In this document: positions 1,589-41,337 of the stretch, piece by piece | Position numbering within the stretch: position 1 is the first letter of the stretch | Layout: every line of letters begins with the position of its first letter | IMG/VR virus record: IMGVR_UViG_3300012665_000850 | Coordinates: 1-49,186 of that record | DNA from: a virus | Taxonomy: Duplodnaviria > Caudoviricetes | Strand: one strand, 5' to 3' | Length of the DNA stretch: 49,186 nucleotides | The notes under the pieces: generated by a model | The model's database searches: none | Told to the model about the DNA's origin: nothing | The model's input: the letters and a program-made list of their open reading frames with translations, nothing else | Translations under genes and position numbers: made by a program

Positions 1589-2089
1589 TTGTCTATCAAT
1601 AAAGCTAAGGCCAACTATGACGATGCTCTTGAAGTAAAGTCTATAGTTGCTTCTGAGTCCGCAGGATTTAATGGTAACACCTCTTTGGCTGGAATTACAA
1701 ATGTGCTAGGAACGCTAGACCTTTCAAAAGGAACAGTATTTTTTGCAGATGGTATCCAGTCAAAGCAGGGTGTTCCATCAATAACTCAGATAAACATAAA
1801 AAACTTTAGCTATACTTTAGCTTCCTTAGATGATAGAGATAGTATTATTGAAATGAACAGTAGTTCTGCAAGCACATTAACTGTTCCACAAGATTCAGTT
1901 CTTAATTTTCCTATAGGAACATCAATAGATATAATTCAAACAAATACAGGACAGACTAATATTGTAGCTGCTCCTGGAGTAACAATTAATGCAACACCTG
2001 GCTTACAACTAAGAACACGCTGGTCTGTTGCAACATTATTTAAAAGAAACGCCAATAGCTGGCTGCTCTTTGGAGATTTAACAGCTTAA
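1589..2089 (+). CDS. Putative virion adaptor/fibre-associated domain protein; paralog of the N-terminus of 38159..39103
   Basis: TTG start. Shares [32 protein letters not shown] and WLL.GDL with the 38159 protein. Confidence 0.7.
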   Translation: MSINKAKANYDDALEVKSIVASESAGFNGNTSLAGITNVLGTLDLSKGTVFFADGIQSKQGVPSITQINIKNFSYTLASLDDRDSIIEMNSSSASTLTVPQDSVLNFPIGTSIDIIQTNTGQTNIVAAPGVTINATPGLQLRTRWSVATLFKRNANSWLLFGDLTA

Positions 2090-2101
2090 AGGAGAAAACA
2101 A

Positions 2102-3664
2102 ATGGGTAAAAAGTCTGGTAGAAAAGCCGATCAATTAGCTGGAGATTTTGATATACCAGTATCTCCAAACAAACCTACAGCAGTAGATGTAGGTACTAAT
2201 CGTCCATATAATAATGGATCAGCTGTTGTCTCTTTTACATATCCATCTGGAAATGCTCCAGCTTCTAGCTATACGGTTATATCTTCTCCAGGAGGATTTA
2301 CAGAAGTTGGAACTTCTAGTCCAATAACTATTATAGGACTTCAATCAGGAATTTCTTATACTTATACTGTAACTGCAACTAATTCAAATGGAACTTCAGA
2401 TCCTTCAGTGCCTTCTGACCCAGTAATTGCTACAACAGTTCCACAAGCACCTCTTAATCCTGGAGTAACATCTACAACTACTGGCCCAGGACATAGCCAG
2501 TCAGATTTACGTGGACAGGATGTTGTTTCATGGCTGGCTCCAGCTACTGGCGGTAAAAATTTAATTGATTATAGAGTTACATCTTCAGATACTGCAGTTC
2601 AACCAGGAGGACTTTCATCTCCATACACAGTAACTGCACCAACAATAACATTAGCTGTAAGAGAAACTATGGGAACAACACAAACCTATTCTATTACTGC
2701 TAGAAATGATAATGGGTCTTCTTTAGCAGCATTTGCTGGATCCGTCACTACATTCTTTTCTCCACCAGCTTTCTTCTCTCCACCATTATTCTTTACACCA
2801 CCGCTATTCTTTTCCCCACCGTTATTCTTTTCACCACCGTTATTTTTTTCACCACCATTATTTTTTTCACCACCATTATTCTTTTCACCACCGCTATTCT
2901 TTTCACCACCCACATTCTTTGGCCCTCCAGGGTTCTTCTCTCCACCAGCGTTTTTCTCCCCACCAGGGTTCTTTACTCCTCCAGGGTTCTTCTCTCCACC
3001 AGCGTTCTTTGGCCCTCCAGGGTTCTTCTCTCCACCAGCGTTTTTCTCCCCGCCTAGATTCTTTTCACCACCATCTTTCTTTTCACCGCCTAGATTCTTT
3101 TCACCACCTAGATTCTTCTCGCCACCTTCATTCTGTATTGTAGAAAATACTTTAGTGTTAACTACAGAAGGATATAAAAAAGCAAAAGATATCAAATCTG
3201 GTGACACATTAATAACTCTCTCATTTGATGATTTGCCGTTAGGAGACCCTAATTGCTCTGTTGGAAATGTTACAGATGAATGCATTGACATTGTTGATAA
3301 ATGGAACTCAAGCGGTTTACATAAAGTAAACTTCTTAGAGTCTAATGTTACAGATATAAAAGAAGCAATATATGAATCTTCTATATATTTTAATGACGAC
3401 ACATCAAAAGAACTATCTTTGTCAGAGCAGATACTTGTTAATAGAGATGAAAAGTTTACTTTTAAAACTACAGCTGAAATTGAAGTAGGAGATATTATAA
3501 TTTCTTATTTAGATAAAGAATTAATAGACATTGAAGTTAAATCTATTAATATTGTAGAAAAAGAAACAAAAGCATTCTTATTTTACAGAGAGCCATACGG
3601 TTTGATTATTGCAGACGGTATGCTTGCCTATAACGGCTGTCCATCAGCGTCCATTGACGCTTAA
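2102..3664 (+). CDS. Fibronectin type III-like domains + 21x FFxPPx repeat + C-terminal Hint-like domain
   Basis: SD AAGGAG upstream. FN3 signatures (GLQSGISYTYTVTATNSNGTS; YSITARNDNGSS). Repeat at 2753-3130. Hint-like block A CIVENTLVLTTEGYKKAKDIKSGD from Cys345 and terminal block IIADGMLAYN. Confidence 0.8.
   Translation: MGKKSGRKADQLAGDFDIPVSPNKPTAVDVGTNRPYNNGSAVVSFTYPSGNAPASSYTVISSPGGFTEVGTSSPITIIGLQSGISYTYTVTATNSNGTSDPSVPSDPVIATTVPQAPLNPGVTSTTTGPGHSQSDLRGQDVVSWLAPATGGKNLIDYRVTSSDTAVQPGGLSSPYTVTAPTITLAVRETMGTTQTYSITARNDNGSSLAAFAGSVTTFFSPPAFFSPPLFFTPPLFFSPPLFFSPPLFFSPPLFFSPPLFFSPPLFFSPPTFFGPPGFFSPPAFFSPPGFFTPPGFFSPPAFFGPPGFFSPPAFFSPPRFFSPPSFFSPPRFFSPPRFFSPPSFCIVENTLVLTTEGYKKAKDIKSGDTLITLSFDDLPLGDPNCSVGNVTDECIDIVDKWNSSGLHKVNFLESNVTDIKEAIYESSIYFNDDTSKELSLSEQILVNRDEKFTFKTTAEIEVGDIIISYLDKELIDIEVKSINIVEKETKAFLFYREPYGLIIADGMLAYNGCPSASIDA
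2753..3130 (+). repeat. 18-bp coding tandem repeat, 21 units of FF[S/T/G]PP[A/L/T/G/R/S]
   Basis: 378 nt = 126 codons = 21 hexapeptides, counted directly. Synonymous codons vary between units. Confidence 0.97.
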
Positions 3665-3682
3665 ATAACTAAATGCTATAGT
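3654..3682 (+). promoter_or_regulatory. Sigma70/SigA-type promoter, probably leaderless, for the oxygenase operon
   Basis: TTGACG (3654-3659), 17 nt, TATAGT (3677-3682) with extended TG. ATG at 3689 with no SD. Confidence 0.7.
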
Positions 3683-3688
3683 GTACTT

Positions 3689-4321
3689 ATGTACTCTAAA
3701 AAAGAAGAAGTATTTCATGGCATCTGGAAATATTCAGATGTTTTTACAGACGACCTTAATTTAATTAATAGAATTGAGTCTGAAGTAGAGAAAGAAGAGT
3801 TTTCTTGGAGAAAAGGAACTGTAGGCTTAGATGCTGAGTTTCCAGAGTATAGGGATTGCTACGACCTTAAACTAAGTAGACTTGGCAAGTCACATGAATT
3901 ATATCAAGATATATATAATGCACAAGTTCCCTGTGTAGATGATTATTGTTCAATGTATACTATTGAAATGAATTATTGGGAATGGACAAATATTGTAAAA
4001 TATGGGCCAGGACAACATTTTAAAGAGCATGCAGATCATGGCTGGTCTTATGTATCAACAGTTTCTTTGGTAGGATATCCTAATGATGATTACGAAGGTG
4101 GAGACCTTTATTTTCCAAAGTTAAATTTAAGATTTAAGCCAAAAGCTGGAGACCTATATATATTCCCATCAGCATATATATATTCACATATTGCAGAGCC
4201 AGTTATTTCTGGAACCAAGTATTGTTTTGCCACTATGCTTGACTATAATGATGATGCACATTCAAAAGAATTTGAAGAGTATTTAGATATAAAATATAAA
4301 AAAGAAAAGAGACTAATATAA
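3689..4321 (+). CDS. 2OG-Fe(II) oxygenase, prolyl 4-hydroxylase-like
   Basis: KYGPGQHFKEHAD, YPNDDYEGGDLYFP, YSHIAEPVISGTKY: HxD...H triad plus Lys. Confidence 0.88.
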   Translation: MYSKKEEVFHGIWKYSDVFTDDLNLINRIESEVEKEEFSWRKGTVGLDAEFPEYRDCYDLKLSRLGKSHELYQDIYNAQVPCVDDYCSMYTIEMNYWEWTNIVKYGPGQHFKEHADHGWSYVSTVSLVGYPNDDYEGGDLYFPKLNLRFKPKAGDLYIFPSAYIYSHIAEPVISGTKYCFATMLDYNDDAHSKEFEEYLDIKYKKEKRLI

Positions 4322-4983
4322 TGTTACCAAACGCCGAACTTCTTTACCCAGGTGTTATTGTATACAGAAATGTTTTTAACGGTTTAAACGTTATTGATAG
4401 ACTAGAAGAAGTTTTATCTAACGACTCCTATGAAGAAAAGTGGGATCAGGCCAGTACTGGTTATTCAAAAATAGACAAGTCTTATAGAGACTGTTGGGAT
4501 CACCATATTAAAAAGAATGTCTTTGACGATGAAGGTAAGCCAGAATCTCAATTAAAGCTAGAGTCTATTTGGCAAGACTGCAAGGATGCTCAGTACGCAG
4601 CCGTAGAAGATTATAGGTCTATGTTTAGCTTAGCTCCTTTAGGATATTGGGAGTCTTTTAATTTTATTAAGTACGGTCCAGGACAGCACTTCCAAGTACA
4701 CTCAGATCACGGGTATTCTTACATCTGTGTTCTTTCTTCTGTTGGTTACGTTAATGATGACTACGAAGGCGGTGAGCTTTACTTTGATAAGCTTGGTCTA
4801 AAGATAAAGCCACAGGCTGGAGACCTATATCTTTTCCCATCATCTTATATTTATTCTCACTCAGCAATGCCAGTAACAAACGGAGTTAAATATTCCGTTG
4901 TAACAATGCTAGATTATTCTTTGGCTCCACATTCTCCAGAATATCGTGAGATAGAACAAAAGTATAGATTAATTCACGAGTAA
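4321..4983 (+). CDS. 2OG-Fe(II) oxygenase, prolyl 4-hydroxylase-like; close paralog of 3689..4321
   Basis: KYGPGQHFQVHSD, YVNDDYEGGELYF, YSHSAMPVTNGVKY. TAATG coupling to the previous gene. Confidence 0.88.
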   Translation: MLPNAELLYPGVIVYRNVFNGLNVIDRLEEVLSNDSYEEKWDQASTGYSKIDKSYRDCWDHHIKKNVFDDEGKPESQLKLESIWQDCKDAQYAAVEDYRSMFSLAPLGYWESFNFIKYGPGQHFQVHSDHGYSYICVLSSVGYVNDDYEGGELYFDKLGLKIKPQAGDLYLFPSSYIYSHSAMPVTNGVKYSVVTMLDYSLAPHSPEYREIEQKYRLIHE

Positions 4984-4991
4984 GGTATAAC

Positions 4992-5702
4992 ATGATTAAC
5001 CTAGAAGTTTTCAGAACTGGCCCAGACTCAGCTAACATAGAGCCCTTGTCTGGTAAAAGACAATGGATGGACGAAAGCCAAGAAAAGCATGCATACAGAT
5101 GTTTTCCTTTAAGCTTAAGCAATCAATTAGGCTGGGCAATATCATTTCCAGAAGATATAACATTTATGTGGGATGGACAAATTACAACTTCTCCTGATAA
5201 TGTAAAGGTCTTACAAGGAGAAAAATATTGTAGCACTGGAAGAGGAAATGCTACTATTAGTTTTAATACTAACCTTACATTTAGAACAGATAAAAGCCAT
5301 AGCCTTCTTTCTTATCCAGCCCCAAATCATTTTGTAGATGGAGCAACACCGTTTACAACAATTATGAGCACTTCATTTTTTGAAGGACAGCTCCCAGTTT
5401 CTTGGAGAATTACTAGAGCCTTTCATCCAATAACAATTAAAGCAGGAGAACCAATTATTGCAGTAATGCCAATATCTTTAACAGATATTCATGGATCAAC
5501 GCTTTATATGAAGTCTCCAGATGACATGAAGCCAATTCATAGAGAAAAGCCACTGACTCTTGAAGGTGCAATTGAAGCTGGTAATAAGGCAGCTCTAAAT
5601 GGCGGTTGGACAGACTATTACCGAGATGCAGTAGACTACATGGGCAATAAATTAGGTGAGCATGAAGTAAAATCTATTAAGTTAAAGATAGAGGGAGCTT
5701 AA
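4992..5702 (+). CDS. DUF6065-like protein
   Basis: R.WMDE..EKHAYRCFPLSLSNQLGW and IKAGEPIIAVMP resemble DUF6065 as recalled; not searched. Confidence 0.6.
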   Translation: MINLEVFRTGPDSANIEPLSGKRQWMDESQEKHAYRCFPLSLSNQLGWAISFPEDITFMWDGQITTSPDNVKVLQGEKYCSTGRGNATISFNTNLTFRTDKSHSLLSYPAPNHFVDGATPFTTIMSTSFFEGQLPVSWRITRAFHPITIKAGEPIIAVMPISLTDIHGSTLYMKSPDDMKPIHREKPLTLEGAIEAGNKAALNGGWTDYYRDAVDYMGNKLGEHEVKSIKLKIEGA

Positions 5703-5703
5703 A

Positions 5704-6417
5704 ATTAATACAATAAGATTTTGGTCTAATCGGGTTAGCAATGATAATTCTACCGTTCCTCAGCCTACAAAAAAATTAGTTCCAGAATGGTTTGCAAGTG
5801 CAAATAAGTATTGGAAAGGCGAAGATGGAAAAGACTTTCAGGTAACTGAAGAAGAAAAAGGTTTAGGGTTTAAGGCTTGTCCAGCTTTACTAGATATATT
5901 TACTTCAGGTTATTTACTTGTTACTCCCTGCGATATAGTTATATATAAACAAAATGATGTTAAGCATGTAGTTTGTTCTCCTGGATTTGATGATTTTTGT
6001 GGCACAAGAGAATATATGGGCGGATTTGAATATCCAAAAGGATACGGCAAAGACTCCTTTCATTGGTATTTAAATTGGGGTTTTGATTTACCAGAGGGCT
6101 ATAGCGCATTAGTAATCCACCCAATAAATAGATTTGAGTTACCATTTTTAACAACAAGCGGTATAATTGATAGTGATAGATACAGCTTACCAGGACTTAT
6201 ACCATTTTTTGTAAAGGAAGATTTTACTGGTGTTATTCCTAAAGGAACTCCGTATGCACAGGTTATCCCTTTCAAAAGAGAAGACTGGAAAGCAGAATAC
6301 AAATTTTTAGAAGAAAAAGAAATGATTGAAAGATATGAAAAAGATGTTAAGATATACAGAGTTCCATTCGGTGGAGTATATAAAAAAAGAACATGGGCAA
6401 AGAAAAAGTATGAATAG
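5704..6417 (+). CDS. DUF6065-like/dUTPase-fold-like protein, probably starting at ATT (longer than the 6016..6417 track call)
   Basis: The frame is open from 5692 to 6417. SD-like GAGGGAG (5691-5697) precedes ATT at 5704. The upstream part reads ..KKLVPEWF..FKACPALLDIFTSGYLLVTPCDI..; the C-terminus has IPKGTPYAQVIPFKREDW. Confidence 0.7.
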   Translation: MNTIRFWSNRVSNDNSTVPQPTKKLVPEWFASANKYWKGEDGKDFQVTEEEKGLGFKACPALLDIFTSGYLLVTPCDIVIYKQNDVKHVVCSPGFDDFCGTREYMGGFEYPKGYGKDSFHWYLNWGFDLPEGYSALVIHPINRFELPFLTTSGIIDSDRYSLPGLIPFFVKEDFTGVIPKGTPYAQVIPFKREDWKAEYKFLEEKEMIERYEKDVKIYRVPFGGVYKKRTWAKKKYE

Positions 6418-6425
6418 AGGAAAAT

Positions 6426-7103
6426 ATGAATAACGATGTTAGCTGGGATGAAGGCATAAGAACAGCAAGAACCTCCATTACACCTTCAGGCTATTTTGGT
6501 AACAGCAAAGATAATATTGTAGAGCTTGAGAACATTATCACAGAAGAAGAATGTGAGTTCCTTTTAAACTTTGCCAAGACAAATACTATTTGGGATGTAA
6601 CAAGATCGGCAAAAAATGAGAACGGCAACGTCATATATGATGCCGATGTTTGGGCAAACAGAGTAGCAACAAAGCCTTCTTTAGATCAATGTGATCCAAA
6701 AGTAACAGAGATGCTAAAGGCTATCTATGATAGAATTAAGCCTCACTTAGAAAAGCATTTTAATGTTGAGTGCTACCCAACTGGCCCATGCGTTGTAAGA
6801 TGGCCAGTAGGATCAATGCAATGGCCTCACGCAGATAAAGAATTGCATGAAGGCCCAGATAAAGGAACACCAGGAAACTTTCCATGGTATGACCTAGGAA
6901 CGGTTATTTATTTTAACGATGATTACGAAGGTGGAAGACTACATTTTCCACAACATGATGTTGCTTTTAAACCAAAGAAAAGGGCAGCGTACTTTTTCCC
7001 AGGAGACAAAAATTACATTCATGGTGTAGATGTAATGACAGAAGGAACCAGATATACATCTCCGTTATTCTGGACTATTACAAAATTGGAAGCAGATAAA
7101 TAA
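6426..7103 (+). CDS. 2OG-Fe(II) oxygenase, prolyl hydroxylase-like
   Basis: WPHADK, YFNDDYEGGRLHFP, YIHGVDVMTEGTRYT (Arg type). Confidence 0.88.
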   Translation: MNNDVSWDEGIRTARTSITPSGYFGNSKDNIVELENIITEEECEFLLNFAKTNTIWDVTRSAKNENGNVIYDADVWANRVATKPSLDQCDPKVTEMLKAIYDRIKPHLEKHFNVECYPTGPCVVRWPVGSMQWPHADKELHEGPDKGTPGNFPWYDLGTVIYFNDDYEGGRLHFPQHDVAFKPKKRAAYFFPGDKNYIHGVDVMTEGTRYTSPLFWTITKLEADK

Positions 7104-7897
7104 TGTCAAACTTTACAGTAAATACTTTATATCCAAAGATAGATGTGTATAAGGGATTGCTCCCATTAAACAAAGAAATATTTGAAGTTATTAAAAGCAC
7201 AGAAGATAACACTGGAGAGCATTACTTTAATCCATGGACTCCATGGGCTTCTTTTGGTCAATACTCCTCAACTAAATTTAGAGATGCTATGCAGGATAGA
7301 CGTGGTCAGGACGAGACTTTTGATAAGCAATACTGGGCAGCAGAAGCAGTTTACGATGCATATAAGATTGCAGTAGATGATTATATTGAAAGAAATAATG
7401 TTGAGCTACCAGAAGGATCGGCTCTGGGGTCATCTTCATTTTGTAAGTACCATAGTAATTTAGATGTGCTTAATAATCAGCTAACAATGCAGTATCATAC
7501 AGATTTTAAAAGAGTTGAAAAAGACATGCCAGGAAATCAATTCTTTTTAACATGCACAGTTTACATAAATGATGATTACGATGGCGGAGACATCATGTTT
7601 TACGTAGATGGAGATCACTTATCTTACAAGCCAGAAGCTGGAGATATAATGGTCTTTCCTTCAGGAGAGCCATATTATCATGGAGTTAAAACAGCAACAA
7701 ATGGCACAAAGTATTTAATAAGAAACTTTATGATTTACCCAAACCCTGGCTCTAAAGAATGGTTAGAAAACCAAGCACGTTATGGGGCAGTAAAATGGGC
7801 AAAGATGGAAGAAGAAAGACTTGCTGCAGCAAAATATGGCGGTAACGTTTTTATTAAAGACGGCAAGCTAGTAGATAGTCCAACAGAAGGAGAATAA
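7103..7897 (+). CDS. 2OG-Fe(II) oxygenase, prolyl hydroxylase-like
   Basis: MQYHTD, YINDDYDGGDIMF, YYHGVKTATNGTKY. TAATG coupling. Confidence 0.88.
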   Translation: MSNFTVNTLYPKIDVYKGLLPLNKEIFEVIKSTEDNTGEHYFNPWTPWASFGQYSSTKFRDAMQDRRGQDETFDKQYWAAEAVYDAYKIAVDDYIERNNVELPEGSALGSSSFCKYHSNLDVLNNQLTMQYHTDFKRVEKDMPGNQFFLTCTVYINDDYDGGDIMFYVDGDHLSYKPEAGDIMVFPSGEPYYHGVKTATNGTKYLIRNFMIYPNPGSKEWLENQARYGAVKWAKMEEERLAAAKYGGNVFIKDGKLVDSPTEGE

Positions 7898-7898
7898 A

Positions 7899-8606
7899 AT
7901 GGATATTGTTCAATTAAGAGAAGACATTTGGGTAGTTGATAATTTAATTACAGAATCAGAATGTCAGTCAATAATTAATTATTTAGATGGCATAGTAAAT
8001 GCAAATCTTTTAGAGTGGAATCAAATTTCATTCTACGGTTCTTTTGCAATGGGATATTGGCCAAGAGATCCAAATCTTCTAATGTTTGGTTTGCCAGAAG
8101 ACTACTTTGCACAGCTTAAAGAAAAAATTAAGAAGGCTAGCGAAGAGTGCCTTGGGCGTGAACTTTCAGAAGTAAGTTATCATGCTCAAAAATGGGTAGA
8201 AGGGGCATTTGCATCATTCCATTCAGATAATACTCATGAAGACGGATCGCCAAGCGCCTTCTATAGAAGTAAGTACGCAGGATTCCTTTATTTAAATGAT
8301 AACTTTGACGGTGGTATGCTAAACTTTAAAAACTTTGATGTTACAGTAAAAGCAAAACCAGGCAGATATGCATTCTTTAGAGGTGGGCATGGAAACGAAC
8401 ATGAAGTTACCACTGTGAGAAATGGAGAAAGATATACAGTTGGATCATTCTGGGATAATGCAGATGAAACATATAATGAAGAACTTTTAGCCTTATGGGA
8501 AAAAGAACTTAAACAAACAAGAGAAGATCAAGAAAGAACTTATGCTCAATGGGCAGAAGATAAGAAAAAGGGAATAGAACCTCAGCATAAGGGTAAATAT
8601 GATTAA
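7899..8606 (+). CDS. 2OG-Fe(II) oxygenase, prolyl hydroxylase-like
   Basis: SFHSDN, YLNDNFDGGMLNF, EHEVTTVRNGERYT (Arg type). Confidence 0.88.
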   Translation: MDIVQLREDIWVVDNLITESECQSIINYLDGIVNANLLEWNQISFYGSFAMGYWPRDPNLLMFGLPEDYFAQLKEKIKKASEECLGRELSEVSYHAQKWVEGAFASFHSDNTHEDGSPSAFYRSKYAGFLYLNDNFDGGMLNFKNFDVTVKAKPGRYAFFRGGHGNEHEVTTVRNGERYTVGSFWDNADETYNEELLALWEKELKQTREDQERTYAQWAEDKKKGIEPQHKGKYD

Positions 8607-9192
8607 GACAATACTGCATCCAGAAATTCATTATTATAAAAATGTAATTGAAGACCCACAGGGTTTTATAAAAGAGCTAGAAGAAATGGATGAGCTTCAG
8701 CCAACAGTCTCCCAAATATCAGCATGGCAGCAATGGGATTCATCCCGTAAGGATGCAGTTTTTGGATCAATCAAAAGATGTTTTTTAAATTTGTATCAAA
8801 ACGAAACAGACGTAGATAGATCAAATTCAAAGCTTTGTTCAATTATTGCACACAATGCAATATCTATAGGAGAACAATATTCTGCAGACTCTGGAATAGA
8901 GCTAGGATACCTACCAGTTTATTTTGGTATAAATAAATACAATATAGGTGTTCACATGGGCGCTCACGTAGACGCTTATGATGGAGCACAGGATACATCT
9001 ACAGTTTCAATGGTAATGTATTTAAATGATGACTATGAGGGTGGAGAAATAGAATTCCCAGACCATGGAATATTGTTAAAGCCAGAAGCTGGAAGCGTGG
9101 TTGTCTTTTCTTCAAGAGGGATTCTGCATGACCCAAAGCCAACAATATCTGGAACAAAGTATATGGTTCCCATATTCTTTTTCAAAAGATAG
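8599..9192 (+). CDS. 2OG-Fe(II) oxygenase, prolyl hydroxylase-like
   Basis: MGAHVD, YLNDDYEGGEIEFP, LHDPKPTISGTKY. Confidence 0.88.
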   Translation: MIKTILHPEIHYYKNVIEDPQGFIKELEEMDELQPTVSQISAWQQWDSSRKDAVFGSIKRCFLNLYQNETDVDRSNSKLCSIIAHNAISIGEQYSADSGIELGYLPVYFGINKYNIGVHMGAHVDAYDGAQDTSTVSMVMYLNDDYEGGEIEFPDHGILLKPEAGSVVVFSSRGILHDPKPTISGTKYMVPIFFFKR

Positions 9193-31457: not shown

Positions 31458-31841
31458 ATGAAAAGAATTTCAATACAGCAAATTGTAGATGGTGCTCCAA
31501 TTGTTATTGATGAGAACGATCCAGATTTAGTTTTTCTTAGCTCTAAAAAAGTAATAACAACCAAAAACGGTAAAGCTGTATATGATAAGTATGTTGGTTC
31601 TGTTCCAGGCGGAGACGGTGGAGGAGATACTCCTGAGCCACCAAAGCCTCCAGAGCCACCAAAGCCCCCATTTAAACCAGATATACCAGATTTAAGCGAT
31701 ATAGAAAGTATTACTTATGAGCAATACTACGATTCCTCAAAGAAGGCTAGAATTAAAGCTATAATTAAAATGAGAAACTCAAGCTTAAAAGCACAAGAAG
31801 TAGAAGGGGTAGATGCAAGGATCTATGATCCAAGCTCATGA
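31458..31841 (+). CDS. Hypothetical tail-region protein with a Gly/Pro linker
   Basis: PGGDGGGDTPEPPKPPEPPKPPFKP. Confidence 0.65.
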   Translation: MKRISIQQIVDGAPIVIDENDPDLVFLSSKKVITTKNGKAVYDKYVGSVPGGDGGGDTPEPPKPPEPPKPPFKPDIPDLSDIESITYEQYYDSSKKARIKAIIKMRNSSLKAQEVEGVDARIYDPSS

Positions 31842-37675: not shown

Positions 37676-37879
37676 ATGGCTAATATAGAAAATCAACTTA
37701 AATTAGATATAATTGTACACAGGCATGGAGAAAATCTAGTTAGAATTTCTGCCATACAAAGCCAAATAGAATTATCTTCTGACCAGGCTCAAATAGAGGA
37801 ATATAATAATCAAGTCAATGACCTATTGGCCTCAAATGCGGCCCTAGAAGAACTTAGAAGTAGCCTTGTCATTCTTTGA
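37676..37879 (+). CDS. Small coiled-coil hypothetical protein
   Basis: SD GGAG; heptad-like pattern; resembles 37920..38132. Confidence 0.6.
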   Translation: MANIENQLKLDIIVHRHGENLVRISAIQSQIELSSDQAQIEEYNNQVNDLLASNAALEELRSSLVIL

Positions 37880-37903
37880 CATGGCACCAATAAATGATAT
37901 AAT
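37876..37903 (+). promoter_or_regulatory. Near-consensus promoter upstream of locus 2
   Basis: TTGACA (37876-37881), 16 nt, TATAAT (37898-37903) with extended TG; SD AAAGGAGG before ATG 37920. Confidence 0.75.
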
Positions 37904-37919
37904 ATGAAAGGAGGCAAAA

Positions 37920-38132
37920 ATGACATATGTACTAACCACGCAGGAAAAGACTGATATTATTACTCAGCACCTAAGAAACCTAGAACTATCTATATATAAC
38001 CTAGAGTTATCTATTTTAGAAGAGCAGGCTAAGTCTACTCCAGAAGCAGCTATTCTTTCATCATACAATTCTGATCTATCAGATTTAAATGCAAAGAAGA
38101 CAGCCCTACTTGATGAGCTAGAAGCTCTGTAA
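37920..38132 (+). CDS. Small acidic coiled-coil hypothetical protein
   Basis: Strong SD; Leu heptads. Confidence 0.7.
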   Translation: MTYVLTTQEKTDIITQHLRNLELSIYNLELSILEEQAKSTPEAAILSSYNSDLSDLNAKKTALLDELEAL

Positions 38133-38158
38133 GCTTAATATTTTAAGGAAGTAATCTT

Positions 38159-39103
38159 TTGTCCATAAAGAAAGCAAACGTAAATTACAATGATGCCTTA
38201 GAGGTAAAATCTATATCATCATCATTGTCTGCTGGATTTACAGGAGTCACTTCTTTTGCTGGACAAGTTAGATTATTAGGCACCCTTAATCTTTCTAAAG
38301 GTACTGTATTTTTTGCAGACGGCATTCAGTCAAAGCAGGCTACACCTTCCCTCACAAATATATATACCAAGTATTTTAACTATACCCTCTCATCTTTGGA
38401 CGAGAGGGATAGCTTAATTCAGATGAATAGCACAATTGCAAATGTTTTAACCGTTCCATCAGATAGCAAAACTAATTTCCCAGTTGGAACAACAATTGAT
38501 ATTCTACAAGCAAATACAGGGCAGACAATTATATTCTCAGAAGATGATGTTCAAATTGATTTTACACCAGGGTTTTCTTTAAGACAGCAGTGGTCAACAG
38601 CTACTCTTTTAAAGAGAGCCCCAAATACTTGGTTACTTTACGGAGATCTTGTATTAGCAGATGTTCCAGTTGCTGCATTTTTTAATTTTGAAACACCTGC
38701 TCCAACACCAGAGCCTACACCAGCGCCAACACCAGCGCCAACACCAGCGCCTACACCAGCGCCTACACCAGCGCCAGGACCAGGACCTACACCAGCGCCT
38801 ACACCAGCGCCAACACCAGCTCCAACACCAGCGCCAGGACCAGGACCTACACCAGCGCCAGGACCAGGACCTACACCAGCGCCAACACCAGCGCCAACAC
38901 CAGCGCCTACACCAGCGCCTACACCAGCGCCAACACCAGCGCCAACACCAGCGCCAACACCAGCGCCAACACCAGCGCCAACACCGACACGCAGCGGTAG
39001 AAGATGTTCATCTGCTCAAGCGGCAGCAGGAGAATACTGTTTTAGTACAAGCGAGTGTTTACCAACAGGAGTTGGAGCGGGCTCAGGATGTTGTTGCTGG
39101 TAA
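38159..39103 (+). CDS. Adaptor-domain protein with (TPAP/GPGP)n repeat and Cys-rich tail
   Basis: N-terminus is a paralog of 1589..2089; 99-aa X-P repeat; ends [19 protein letters not shown]. Confidence 0.8.
38693..38989 (+). repeat. 12-bp coding tandem repeat (ACACCAGCGCCW) encoding about 24 TPAP-type units with three GPGP variants
   Basis: Read directly; every second residue is Pro. Confidence 0.97.
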
Positions 39104-39131
39104 TTTATAAAATAAAAGAAATGGAATAAAG

Positions 39132-39581
39132 ATGATTACAGAATCAGATATAGAGTTTGTATATGGCAGAGATGAAAGCCACGCTCTTTGCTGGGTTATA
39201 GATGAAGAGTGTCTATATGACATGGCAATTAATGATCAATACGCCACCTTATTTTTGCTAAATGATAGAATTGAGGATGTGTCTGAGTTATATCCAGATA
39301 ATGCTGGGATTACTGTAAGATTTATTAAAGATGATACCATCATGGAAGATTTTAATACAAGTGAATATTTTGGCAACATACTTTTGAGTCCTCATAAGGT
39401 AATAAACTTATTAGGACATGCTTATGGAAACTATGTAGTATCTCCTTATGCAAATTTTATTAATAATGAGTTTGTAATTACTGAAGAAGATAGAGTAGAC
39501 TTAGAGCCATTTCCACCTTCTGCGCTTATAAAAGAATGTACACAGGAGAACTGCCATTGTTATAAGGCAGATAATGTCTAA
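39132..39581 (+). CDS. Acidic hypothetical protein
   Basis: 149-aa ORF; C-terminal CTQENCHC. Confidence 0.65.
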   Translation: MITESDIEFVYGRDESHALCWVIDEECLYDMAINDQYATLFLLNDRIEDVSELYPDNAGITVRFIKDDTIMEDFNTSEYFGNILLSPHKVINLLGHAYGNYVVSPYANFINNEFVITEEDRVDLEPFPPSALIKECTQENCHCYKADNV

Positions 39582-39804
39582 AAGTAGATGGCAAGAATAT
39601 AAAGAAAAAAATGGGGTTACCCCACTAGATTTATTAAATCCTCAAACTAGGCGTACTACAGATGAGGTATCTAATACAAGAATGTCAATATGTAATGGTT
39701 GTCCAGAGTTGATTAAAATTACATCCCAGTGTAAAAAATGTGGTTGCTTTATGTCAGCAAAAACTAAATTAGAATTAGCAAAATGTCCAGTAGGGAAGTG
39801 GTAA
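39574..39804 (+). CDS. Small Cys-rich metal-binding protein (DUF6171-like)
   Basis: RMSICNGCPEL..QCKKCGCFM..KCPVGKW. Confidence 0.7.
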   Translation: MSKSRWQEYKEKNGVTPLDLLNPQTRRTTDEVSNTRMSICNGCPELIKITSQCKKCGCFMSAKTKLELAKCPVGKW

Positions 39805-39805
39805 A

Positions 39806-40345
39806 ATGATTAAAGAATACACAGGATTAATTCCAGATGAATTGGCTCAAAGATTTTATGATTATGGTTTTTCTATTGCAATGGGTAATTATACTGAAGC
39901 TCCCAGAAGTATTTGGACTAGTTTAAAATGGCATCCAACTTTAGTTACAAATAGTGGTTTAGTGCTATGTATTAGGCCAACAGAGCAAATGGAAAAAGAG
40001 CTAGAAGAAATATTAATAGAAAATGGAATTTTAGATTTAAAAAAAGATAAAAGAATTACTGAGACTGCTTCTGTAATAAATATTTGGGGAAGAGGATCTT
40101 TTATAACTGCTCATCCTGATGGCAACTATAGTAAAGCAATAACTATCTATTTAAACAAAGATTGGAATCACGACCAAGGTGGATTTTTTAATTGGCAAGA
40201 TGAATCTAGCGGTAAATGGAATGTTGTTTCTCCTACATTTAATAAGGCAGTAGTAAATGGAGGAGGGGTATTGCATGGAATCTCTCCAGTACAATCAGAC
40301 TTCAGAATAACTCTGCAAATTTTTGTGCATAAGGTTGATGTGTGA
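39806..40345 (+). CDS. 2OG-Fe(II) oxygenase, prolyl hydroxylase-like
   Basis: ITAHPDG, IYLNKDWNHDQGGFF, PTFNKAV, LHGISPV..FRITLQIF. Confidence 0.85.
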   Translation: MIKEYTGLIPDELAQRFYDYGFSIAMGNYTEAPRSIWTSLKWHPTLVTNSGLVLCIRPTEQMEKELEEILIENGILDLKKDKRITETASVINIWGRGSFITAHPDGNYSKAITIYLNKDWNHDQGGFFNWQDESSGKWNVVSPTFNKAVVNGGGVLHGISPVQSDFRITLQIFVHKVDV

Positions 40346-40404
40346 TAAAATTAGTTCAATTAGATCCTAATGGGTTATGTACTCACGCAATATGGAAAGA
40401 GTAA
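40342..40404 (+). pseudogene. 20-codon mini-ORF MIKLVQLDPNGLCTHAIWKE, possible deletion remnant of a radical SAM-type gene
   Basis: Its GTG overlaps the upstream TGA and its TAA overlaps the downstream ATG. The remnant identity is inference. Confidence 0.35.
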
Positions 40405-41315
40405 TGAAAAAAAGCATTTTTATACAGATAACCTCATACCACGACTATGAGATTAAAAAAACTATTATAGATGCAATAGATAAGTCTTCAGGTAAAACAG
40501 AGCTTGTTTTTGGAGTTCATTCAATATTTTACAATGAGAATTCATGGATTGAGCCAGTAAAAAATATGTCAAGCGTCAAGTTAATTGAAAGCAAAGCACC
40601 AGATAATTTAGGAATTGGACTTGGAAGGTTTATTTCTCATAGCCTTTATTCTGGAGAAGATTATTATTTACAAATAGATGCTCACAGTAGATTTGATTTA
40701 GGCTGGGATATATTTTTAATTAATGAAATAGAAACTCATAAAGCAAATGGATTTAAAAAACCATTAATAACTCAGTACCCTAAACCATTTTGGTATGAAG
40801 GAGAAATAGAAAAAACACGTGATGGTGAAGAAGCTGTAACTCAATTTTATTGGAAAGATAAGCAAAGGTTTAAAGACAGTAGAGTTTCTTTGCAAGGCAC
40901 AATTGTAAACAAAGAAAAAAATATTTTTTCAATTTCAGTATCTGGTGGTTGTATTTTTACAGAAGGAGAATTTTTAAAGCCTAATAAGCTAATATTTGCC
41001 GAGGGAGAAGAAATATTTACAGCGGCAAGAGCTTACACTAACGGATATGATTTATTTGTCCCAAGTAAAATGTTTATGTATCATTTATATTATGGAGCAG
41101 AAGGAAAAAATAAAAGGAGGCTTGCTTTTGAAGATTGGCCAAAAGAAACAATTAGACTAGGTGATATTTCCCATAATGAGATTAAATTTGTTTTAACTGG
41201 AGAAGGAGTAGTTGGAGAATATCGACTGGGCACAGAGAGATCTTTATCTGAATACGGAAAATTTGCTGGACTAGATTTTAATTCTGGTGAAATTTTAGAT
41301 AACTTCTCTTGTTAA
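40404..41315 (+). CDS. GT60-like (Pfam GlcNAc family) glycosyltransferase
   Basis: SIFIQITSYHD.E..KT, YYLQIDAHSRF..GWD (DxH), GEEI..AARAYTNGYDLF.P..YHLY; start placed at the TAATG-coupled ATG 40404. Confidence 0.8.
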   Translation: MKKSIFIQITSYHDYEIKKTIIDAIDKSSGKTELVFGVHSIFYNENSWIEPVKNMSSVKLIESKAPDNLGIGLGRFISHSLYSGEDYYLQIDAHSRFDLGWDIFLINEIETHKANGFKKPLITQYPKPFWYEGEIEKTRDGEEAVTQFYWKDKQRFKDSRVSLQGTIVNKEKNIFSISVSGGCIFTEGEFLKPNKLIFAEGEEIFTAARAYTNGYDLFVPSKMFMYHLYYGAEGKNKRRLAFEDWPKETIRLGDISHNEIKFVLTGEGVVGEYRLGTERSLSEYGKFAGLDFNSGEILDNFSC

Positions 41316-41337
41316 TATTAAACTATAATGTTATAAT
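41309..41337 (+). promoter_or_regulatory. Promoter
   Basis: TTGTTA (41309-41314), 17 nt, TATAAT (41332-41337) with extended TG; a second TATAAT at 41324. Confidence 0.6.

Follow-up and report, generated by a model that had tools for sequence, protein, structure and literature searches.

To our knowledge, documented cases of phage virion glycosylation are few, and the many genes for prolyl-hydroxylase-like enzymes and glycosyltransferases found in aquatic phages are usually labelled as host-metabolism genes with no substrate given. Animal polypeptide GalNAc transferases (GT27) are the best structural match to the phage transferase described here (Z 20.7) and share its DxH motif, whereas the phage enzyme has no lectin domain, is 10-14% identical and gives no sequence match to them. 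Prolyl 4-hydroxylases (4IW3, PHD2/EGLN1, and the Bacillus and algal/viral collagen-type enzymes) share their fold and the HxD...H...R motif with the phage oxygenase, at 13-17% identity.

Glycosyltransferases of family GT60 start mucin-type O-GlcNAc on Ser/Thr in Dictyostelium and Trypanosoma cruzi, according to the relevant part of PMC8724618. These protist mucin enzymes (the Dictyostelium modB pathway, T. cruzi) have in common with the phage transferase the PF11397 domain, a GT27-like fold without ricin domain and the DxH motif, and their proposed acceptor is likewise Thr in repeat stalks (passages of PMC8724618 and PMC3188802); they reside in the Golgi, whereas the phage GT60, of 303 aa, is presumably cytoplasmic and encoded beside its proposed substrate. 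In the PhyA/Gnt1 system of Dictyostelium and Toxoplasma, which acts on Skp1, a prolyl-hydroxylase-like oxygenase and a soluble GT60 are likewise found in one system, but the target is a single Pro of a folded regulator instead of a 49-Pro repeat, and in the phage cassettes, unlike PhyA/Gnt1, oxygenase and GT60 are not obligately linked. In mycobacteriophage virion glycosylation (Freeman et al. 2023, as relayed in part of PMC12619734), glycosyltransferases encoded by an actinophage-like virus are also proposed to act on virion proteins; there the sites are capsid and tail-tube C-termini, whereas the present cassette has a dedicated variable arm, matched enzymes, oxygenases and radical SAM proteins.

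We lean modestly towards a reading of this locus in which the cassette enzymes decorate a tail-anchored arm, the GT60 placing sugar directly on Thr while the oxygenase separately hydroxylates Pro.

Organization of the locus

The window, i.e. the whole stretch of 49,186 nucleotides that was analysed, holds the following features:

37876..37903, + strand: sigma-70-type promoter consensus, 12/12 with extended -10 (consensus match only)
37920..38132, + strand: 70-aa ORF, first gene 3' of the promoter, by eye resembling a small cassette-flanking family of relatives
38159..39103, + strand: arm protein, 314 aa, with anchor domain, X-Pro stalk and Cys cap; likely substrate
38159..38656, + strand: anchor domain, of a type found in terminal position in minor tail and tail fibre proteins (PHROG)
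38693..38986, + strand: alternating X-Pro stalk, 98 residues (TPAP, some GP)
38987..39100, + strand: Cys cap, 38 residues, six Cys
39132..39581, + strand: conserved small protein, 149 aa, no known family
39574..39804, + strand: DUF6171-like / phrog_13558 protein, 76 aa, six invariant Cys
39806..40345, + strand: 2OG-Fe(II) oxygenase, prolyl-4-hydroxylase-like fold
40342..40404, + strand: radical SAM/SPASM gene remnant, 20 codons, in-frame (relatives' gene at the same place)
40404..41315, + strand: GT60 / Pfam GlcNAc glycosyltransferase, 303 aa from its likely start
41309..41337, + strand: promoter-like site (10/12 match) at the transferase gene end; weak, within chance
1589..9192, + strand: second, related cassette of the same phage

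The four parts named in a preliminary description of this DNA (arm, small Cys-rich protein, oxygenase, transferase) were all recovered, all on the + strand, although its operon of four genes overlooked a fifth conserved gene of the unit (39132-39581). Transcription of the unit probably starts at the consensus at 37876-37903, one gene upstream of the arm gene; the promoter scan returned 19 sites in total, a number equal to the shuffle mean, so that only this 12/12 match stands out. The 10/12 site at the transferase gene end would likely mark the next unit. No Pfam or PHROG match of note was found for the 70-aa ORF. Contigs from RNA runs closely match 37892-38526, a sequence match that cannot show transcription. 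The second cassette contains a stand-alone anchor domain, an FN3-(FFSPP)n protein, six 2OG-Fe(II) oxygenases identified by Pfam, and DUF6065; it lacks GT60.

The stalk (residues 179-276) consists of 49 Pro, 22 Thr, 20 Ala, 6 Gly and 1 Glu, with no Ser; the run of 99 residues reported in the preliminary description is real but counts 98, or 99 with the following Thr. Among all ORFs of the window, only the arm protein has X-Pro runs of at least 12. Tandem Repeats Finder resolved the stalk DNA into 24.5 copies of period 12 (85% matches, score 413), its length being that of the assembly, since none of the contigs compared spans the repeat. Pro and Ala codons are mixed, and the stalk is therefore not a perfect collapsed repeat; an assembly artefact is unlikely given these mixed codons and the similar arms on many contigs. 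A His/Gln-rich ORF at 38661-39110 overlaps the arm gene and was rejected as a shadow frame of the repeat. The anchor domain matches PHROG minor tail (E 3e-7) and tail fibre proteins (E 7e-6), is shared with 223 phage records, the top ones mostly annotated as minor tail protein, and is 65% identical to window positions 1589-2089; a search with this domain by itself returned zero viral loci. From the anchor domain and the place of the gene at the end of the tail module, the arm is predicted to be tail-anchored and on the virion. Most relatives' arms also end in a Cys-rich cap, of variable sequence.

The 149-aa protein belongs to a family with 98 members among the loci gathered and is related to a shorter form at the same cassette position (hhalign probability 93%); it had no Pfam, PHROG or NCBIfam match and no usable atlas match. 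A TNF-ligand match (E 5e-4) was regarded as chance, and a role as tail-fibre assembly chaperone was set aside, the shorter relatives matching only a PHROG of unknown function. The 76-aa Cys protein scored 22.1 bits against Pfam DUF6171 (PF19668), below the cut-off of 27, and matched phrog_13558 at E 3e-16; among its atlas neighbours (0.94-0.96), the share of members with DUF6171 is 28-81%. A weak match to the NSE1 RING (E 0.12) was rejected. The DUF6171-like protein is the most constant gene across cassettes, and because both it and the 149-aa protein stay whatever the enzyme set, they probably assist either the Cys cap or assembly.

Transferase, oxygenase and radical SAM remnant

The GT60 assignment of the preliminary description was confirmed by profile search, the transferase passing Pfam GlcNAc (PF11397) with 120 bits against a cut-off of 21 (E 2.1e-34). 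Its motifs D101-A-H103, G210-E-E212 and H236 (numbered from 40377) are invariant in their D, H, G-E-E and H across 44 sequences, and we take the GEE motif and the later His to be spaced like WGGE and the third metal ligand of GalNAc-Ts. The structural model (pLDDT 94) has a GT-A fold nearest to polypeptide GalNAc-Ts, without the ricin domain: GalNAc-T1 with mucin peptide aligned over 267 residues (Z 20.7, rmsd 3.5), the best transferase with a non-peptide acceptor reaching Z 16.1. No solved structure was matched in sequence searches with the transferase.

The transferase most likely starts at the ATG at 40404 and not at 40377. Positions 40342-40404, between the oxygenase and the transferase, correspond to the first 13 and last 7 residues of the relatives' radical SAM gene, a remnant missed in the preliminary description. 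Near-identical contigs continue into this gene, contigs of three runs diverging from the window there; the window contig has apparently lost it. The best match of the cassette radical SAM protein is BtrN, a sugar dehydrogenase (E 7e-7), and GT60 accompanies the radical SAM protein in 29 of the 32 cassettes that have it. A GalE-like epimerase occurs in 27 of the 87 non-redundant cassettes, and the donor sugar is therefore not fixed as UDP-GlcNAc.

The oxygenase, which forms a small family of its own, narrowly passes Pfam 2OG-FeII_Oxy_3 (29.2 bits against a cut-off of 27, E 1.9e-6) and keeps the HxD...H...R motif as H103-D105-H157-R167. Its model has the DSBH fold, and the nearest solved folds are of P4H/PHD type (P. 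putida P4H 4IW3, PHD2/EGLN1; TM 0.66-0.73 at the low identity given above); its earlier description as prolyl-hydroxylase-like is supported. A profile search of solved structures gave weak matches only, including prolyl 4-hydroxylase 6t8m (E 0.37).

Matching of enzymes to arm residues across phages

The unit is a widespread phage cassette composed of a repeat arm, a small helper, a DUF6171-like Cys protein and variable enzymes. The neighbourhood survey finds arm, Cys protein and enzymes together in relatives, as the preliminary description had anticipated, and we found no description of this cassette in the literature. From the scans, the transferase pattern is estimated to occur in about 990 viral stretches and that of DUF6171 in about 1,400. 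In counts of loci that were not de-duplicated, a T/P low-complexity ORF lies up to 5 kb upstream of the transferase gene in 45 of the 53 viral and 19 of the 21 close metagenome loci with enough flank, and downstream in none (0/56 and 0/23, respectively).

The 148 complete cassettes were reduced to 87 non-redundant ones, with five arm compositions corrected by eye and two loci dropped, and arms were classed as Thr-rich (at least 20% Thr) or Pro-rich (at least 30% Pro). GT60 cassettes had 63 Thr-rich and 5 Thr-poor arms, against 5 and 14 in cassettes without GT60 (Fisher 2e-8; 3e-5 stratified by genome context). Similarly, oxygenase cassettes had 36 Pro-rich and 9 Pro-poor arms, against 5 and 37 in those without oxygenase (9e-11; 2e-7 stratified). 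For the 35 cassettes found via DUF6171 alone, the corresponding tables, in the same order, read 15/1/5/14 for GT60 and Thr and 24/1/2/8 for oxygenase and Pro. Cassette relatedness inflates these counts: at 70% de-duplication the stratified test gave p 0.03 (GT60/Thr) and 0.008 (oxygenase/Pro), and at 60% the association was lost (p 0.4 and 0.7, respectively); independent-pairs tests, with five pairs on the transferase tree and one on the 60-residue DUF tree, were not significant and had no power. In all five Thr-rich cassettes without GT60, another gene occupies the transferase slot, two of these having glycosyltransferase family matches.

That GT60 goes with Thr-rich and oxygenases with Pro-rich stalks points to sugar-coated virion arms, likely with the sugar on Thr. 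The modified, mucin-like arm of the preliminary description is thus supported, and its attachment of the sugar to hydroxyproline is disfavoured, given that 40 of the 68 GT60 cassettes have no oxygenase and that GT60 presence follows Thr content. In 22 of these 40 the arm has at most 10% Pro, and some arms of GT60 cassettes (L042, L053) have no Pro at all. The complete genome G001 (40,088 bp) encodes a poly-Thr arm, DUF6171 and GT60, with no oxygenase detected by PF13640 or by seven local oxygenase profiles; whole-record searches of eight incomplete records, fragments that carry little weight, gave two matches in a single record and nothing in the other seven.

A relay of hydroxyproline formation by the oxygenase and transfer of GlcNAc to this residue by GT60, operating at least in the window's transferase clade, is accordingly unlikely in our view, although several observations speak for it. 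The fold of the oxygenase resembles those of P. putida P4H and PHD2, and its profile weakly matches 6t8m; an oxygenase is present in 14/14 cassettes of that clade, and the window's belongs to a different family from those of the other members; a 2OG oxygenase is fused to GT60 in 7 of the 35 long distant GT60 proteins scanned; and the GT60 Gnt1 of Toxoplasma depends on PhyA, as stated in part of PMC6939170. However, an obligate link to the hydroxylase does not hold overall, every arm of the window's clade contains Thr, sister clades go with poly-Thr arms, and Pro-rich, Thr-poor arms mostly lack GT60 (14/19). Furthermore, in L245 (81%) and L246, X-Pro arms are followed by close homologues of the window's oxygenase, with GT60 absent. 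Against the arm as substrate, on the other hand, an arm is missing nearby in two of five homologue loci.

It is also rather improbable that the enzymes act elsewhere, on Thr-rich tail or capsid proteins or on host surface proteins or glycans, the arm being no more than a linked neighbour. Mycobacteriophages do glycosylate capsid and tail-tube C-termini (in the portion of PMC12619734 concerned), the upstream tail proteins of the window are Thr/Ser-rich, and distant GT60s occur without an arm, both in the jumbo phages XacN1 and Xoo-sp13, where a carbamoyltransferase gene is adjacent, and in 37 of 46 bacterial loci. Nevertheless, in several genome contexts, enzyme content tracks the residues of the arm next to it, and transfer between unrelated lineages of phages involves the whole cassette.

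We consider very unlikely a reading with the arm as substrate in which the oxygenase, with radical SAM and epimerase, tailors the sugar or a non-Pro residue. The divergence of the oxygenase family (13-17% identity to its fold matches) and the frequent company of GT60 and a BtrN-like radical SAM protein would fit such a role, but oxygenases are commonest without GT60 (17 of 19 such cassettes) and track Pro content, and the commoner oxygenase family of the cassettes has its best match in prolyl 4-hydroxylases (E 1e-14). TET-type oxygenase-glycosyltransferase pairs are known. Hypermodification of DNA bases by the two enzymes is nonetheless highly improbable, even with DNA-modifying phage glycosyltransferases being common (part of PMC12619734), since the oxygenase has no Tet_JBP match in Pfam (E<=0.1) and prolyl hydroxylases as best folds, the transferase fold is of peptide-transferase type, and the cassette, located within the tail module, segregates with a protein repeat.

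Proposed decoration of the arm and its significance

In the reading that we prefer, the arm is presumably the substrate of the neighbouring enzymes and would be modified in the host cytoplasm ahead of assembly. GT60 would add a sugar, likely HexNAc, to stalk Thr, mucin-style and probably with no need of hydroxyproline, and the oxygenase would hydroxylate stalk Pro in a parallel step independent of glycosylation; in close relatives, a BtrN-like radical SAM protein and often a GalE-like epimerase may tailor or supply the sugar. The modified stalk may be stiff, hydrated and protease-resistant, projecting the Cys-rich tip.

We give about even chances to a broader scheme of swappable virion decoration in freshwater phages, in which a hypervariable arm with a Cys-rich tip is combined with an unchanging Cys6 helper and with enzymes matched to the arm residues. 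GT60 would serve Thr, prolyl hydroxylases Pro, and divergent GT60s perhaps Tyr, with other transferases also in use and radical SAM and epimerase as tailors. Counter to the GT60-Thr pattern, a divergent GT60 accompanies the YYAPPV arm of L067, whose stalk is almost without Ser/Thr, and a split GT60 the FFPP arm of the incomplete L228. Phe/Pro arms are mostly without GT60, and the suggestion that the transferase might also act on the FFSPP repeat of locus 1 is disfavoured for that reason.

The cassette layout offers candidate substrates and a testable enzyme-to-residue rule. Considering the estimated numbers of stretches with the transferase and DUF6171 patterns, lake phages may commonly have arm decoration as a surface trait, bearing on adhesion, stability or grazing. 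If true, phages would build mucins and extensins in the bacterial cytoplasm, and their cassettes would offer a large natural collection of soluble O-glycosyltransferases acting on proteins, among which mucin-type transferases working in the bacterial cytoplasm would be useful tools.

Gene content of the cassette

Portal, capsid, tape-measure and replication genes are found in the window, a single virus record of 49,186 bp. Its capsid protein shares 62% identity with those of large Streptomyces siphophages, and the sequencing runs that match the window best are freshwater metagenomes. The cassette is located where the tail module ends; there, the parts of the unit named in the preliminary description were recovered together with additional ones:

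38159..39103, arm protein (314 aa): anchor domain, X-Pro stalk and C-terminal cap with six Cys
following in order, a 149-aa protein and a 76-aa DUF6171-like protein
39806..40345, 2OG-Fe(II) oxygenase
40342-40404, radical SAM/SPASM remnant: start (13 residues) and end (7 residues) of a protein encoded at this position in relatives
40404..41315, GT60 transferase (Pfam GlcNAc, PF11397), its start overlapped by the stop of the remnant

The anchor domain of the arm matches tail-protein PHROGs and was found in 223 phage records, the top rows being mostly minor tail proteins; it shares 65% identity with an ORF at 1589. The X-Pro run that follows it spans 98 residues, with 22 Thr and no Ser. A short PEPPKP repeat also occurs inside a 127-aa ORF of the tail region (31630-31670). 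Elsewhere in the window (2102-3664), the last domain of an FN3-(FFSPP)n protein resembles Hint (intein-like) by eye, fn3 being the only Pfam match of the protein, which is followed by six Pfam 2OG-Fe(II) oxygenases and DUF6065 (3689-9192). This layout is repeated in L038, L043, L050 and L059 without GT60, and a similar Hint-like domain replaces the Cys cap in the arms of L120-L124.

The predicted model of the transferase (pLDDT 94) had polypeptide GalNAc-Ts as first match by two aligners, and that of the oxygenase (pLDDT 86) matched first the P. putida P4H and PHD2. Across 15 oxygenase sequences H103, D105 and R167 are invariant, and H157 nearly so.

In three runs belonging to a single study, near-identical contigs (0-1 differences where compared) diverge from the window at 40377 or 40381 and continue into sequence reading like a radical SAM gene. 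Five bases are common to both sides of the junction, which was bridged by contigs in none of four runs. The window thus carries a deletion of the radical SAM gene, or is a chimera, and in its lineage the usual order is arm, helper, DUF6171, oxygenase, radical SAM and GT60.

Conservation of the layout

The gathered set comprised 244 loci, 80 of them found via DUF6171 alone. Co-occurrence of the genes in relatives, for which the preliminary description had proposed a gene-neighbourhood survey, was supported. An X-Pro, Cys-capped protein lies upstream in 9 of the 11 loci with a close transferase (66-76%), the remaining two being cut short. Where 5 kb or more of flanking sequence was available (duplicates kept), the transferase has a T/P repeat upstream in 45/53 viral and 19/21 close metagenome loci, and downstream in 0/56 and 0/23. 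Several unrelated genome contexts carry the cassette, with poly-Thr, TTTTAAP, TP, VAPTP, VTPP, VVPP, IIATPPP, FFPP and YYAP arms.

One protein (P0072) fuses GT60 to DUF6171. Further GT60 fusions (P0137, P0235, P0267) involve DUF7164, SPASM and HtrL/YibB; all four partner families are also met as neighbours. GT60 is split into two ORFs in L060, L228, L233 and L259, and other sugar genes (GT61, phrog_2644, an unnamed 342-aa family, UDP-glucose dehydrogenase, HAD/nucleotidyltransferase) occupy or adjoin its slot in L016, L040, L061, L068, L086 and L010.

Among 50,697 cultured-phage records no close transferase relative was found (best 27%), and 83 records hold a DUF6171 relative. In cyanophage S-IOM18 (L254:3609-6892) DUF6171 follows tail-fibre genes; the next gene, annotated as endonuclease V, reads like a 2OG oxygenase. 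In the cultured jumbo phages Xoo-sp13 and XacN1 (L253, L257), a 27% GT60 relative adjoins a carbamoyltransferase, with no arm annotated.

Of 46 distant bacterial GT60 loci, 9 have an upstream T/P repeat, some probably being spurious frames, and no oxygenase was found in those nine. Unambiguous examples are a 1,398-aa Thr/Pro-rich protein of Pseudoduganella (20% Thr, 20% Pro; L280:1739-7557), directly followed by GT60, and PEPT-repeat proteins of Halomonas. In enterobacteria and Trinickia (L285, L289, L311, L312, L330) the distant GT60 lies, by eye, within type VI secretion loci, and a Thr-rich secreted-type gene adjoins it in four of the five.

Sorting of enzymes by arm composition

Of the 176 loci in which an arm was recognised, 148 had a complete cassette; two loci without a true arm were dropped, L067 was added, five arm compositions were corrected after visual inspection, and 87 cassettes were left once those sharing 85% DUF identity had been merged. 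Thr-rich arms (Thr at least 20%) occurred in 63/68 cassettes with GT60 versus 5/19 without, and Pro-rich arms (Pro at least 30%) in 36/45 cassettes with an oxygenase versus 5/42 without. Excluding the mis-picked arms, in place of correcting them, left both tables nearly unchanged. Among the 35 DUF6171-found cassettes, those with GT60 were Thr-rich in 15 and Thr-poor in one, those without in 5 and 14; those with an oxygenase were Pro-rich in 24 and Pro-poor in one, those without in 2 and 8. L067 is one more exception if added.

The cassettes are related to each other. Under stratification by genome context both links hold at 85% merging (p 3e-5 for GT60 with Thr, 2e-7 for oxygenase with Pro), are weaker at 70% (p 0.03 and 0.008) and are lost at 60%; independent-pairs tests had too few pairs.

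Any oxygenase is absent from 40 of the 68 GT60 cassettes, the arm having at most 10% Pro in 22 of the 40, and was not detectable in the complete genome G001 (poly-Thr arm, DUF6171, GT60). Two close homologues of the window oxygenase stand behind X-Pro arms without GT60, a third behind an arm whose contig stops shortly downstream, and two more have no nearby arm. The oxygenase-free cassettes exclude hydroxyproline (Hyp) only if the arm is the substrate, as we infer. A Hyp-dependent specialisation of GT60 is possible in the window's own clade, since each of its 14 members has a cassette with an oxygenase and an arm containing Thr and Pro.

GT60-oxygenase fusions were found in 7 of 35 long distant GT60 proteins scanned (of 150 listed); in P0135, P0136, P0138, P0140, P0151, P0178 and P0180 a 2OG oxygenase is joined to GT60 domains in two to four tandem copies, and AhpC/TSA is also present in some.

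The five Thr-poor GT60 cassettes have Thr in every repeat in three, Ser in one, and neither in L067. YYAP-repeat arms accompany divergent GT60 (L067:6596-10293, L084:5379-7565, L123:2-4918). Since the L067 stalk is almost free of Ser/Thr and its cassette has no oxygenase, Tyr is a possible acceptor for the divergent GT60 of YYAP arms.

A putative glycosylated tail arm

Most likely, the arm would be produced late, together with the tail genes; its stalk threonines would receive sugar from GT60, and its prolines would be hydroxylated by the oxygenase independently of sugar transfer. The anchor domain would place it on the tail, the stalk holding out the Cys-rich tip. Radical SAM, which co-occurs with GT60 in 29/32 cases and has BtrN as nearest solved protein, and a GalE-like epimerase would tailor or supply the sugar.

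The GT60 family includes the Hyp-specific Gnt1 (PMC6939170) as well as Ser/Thr enzymes of the mucin type from Dictyostelium and T. cruzi (PMC8724618, PMC3188802); we liken the phage GT60 to the latter by co-occurrence. Mycobacteriophage virion glycosylation, as cited in PMC12619734, is the phage precedent. Such a cassette is not described in the accessible parts of PMC13738210 or PMC12801897, nor was a description found in a literature search of the main text of open-access papers. The cassette is real and conserved, and apparently undescribed so far; it represents a putative variant of the O-glycosylation of virion proteins in phages, and its substrate rule can be tested.
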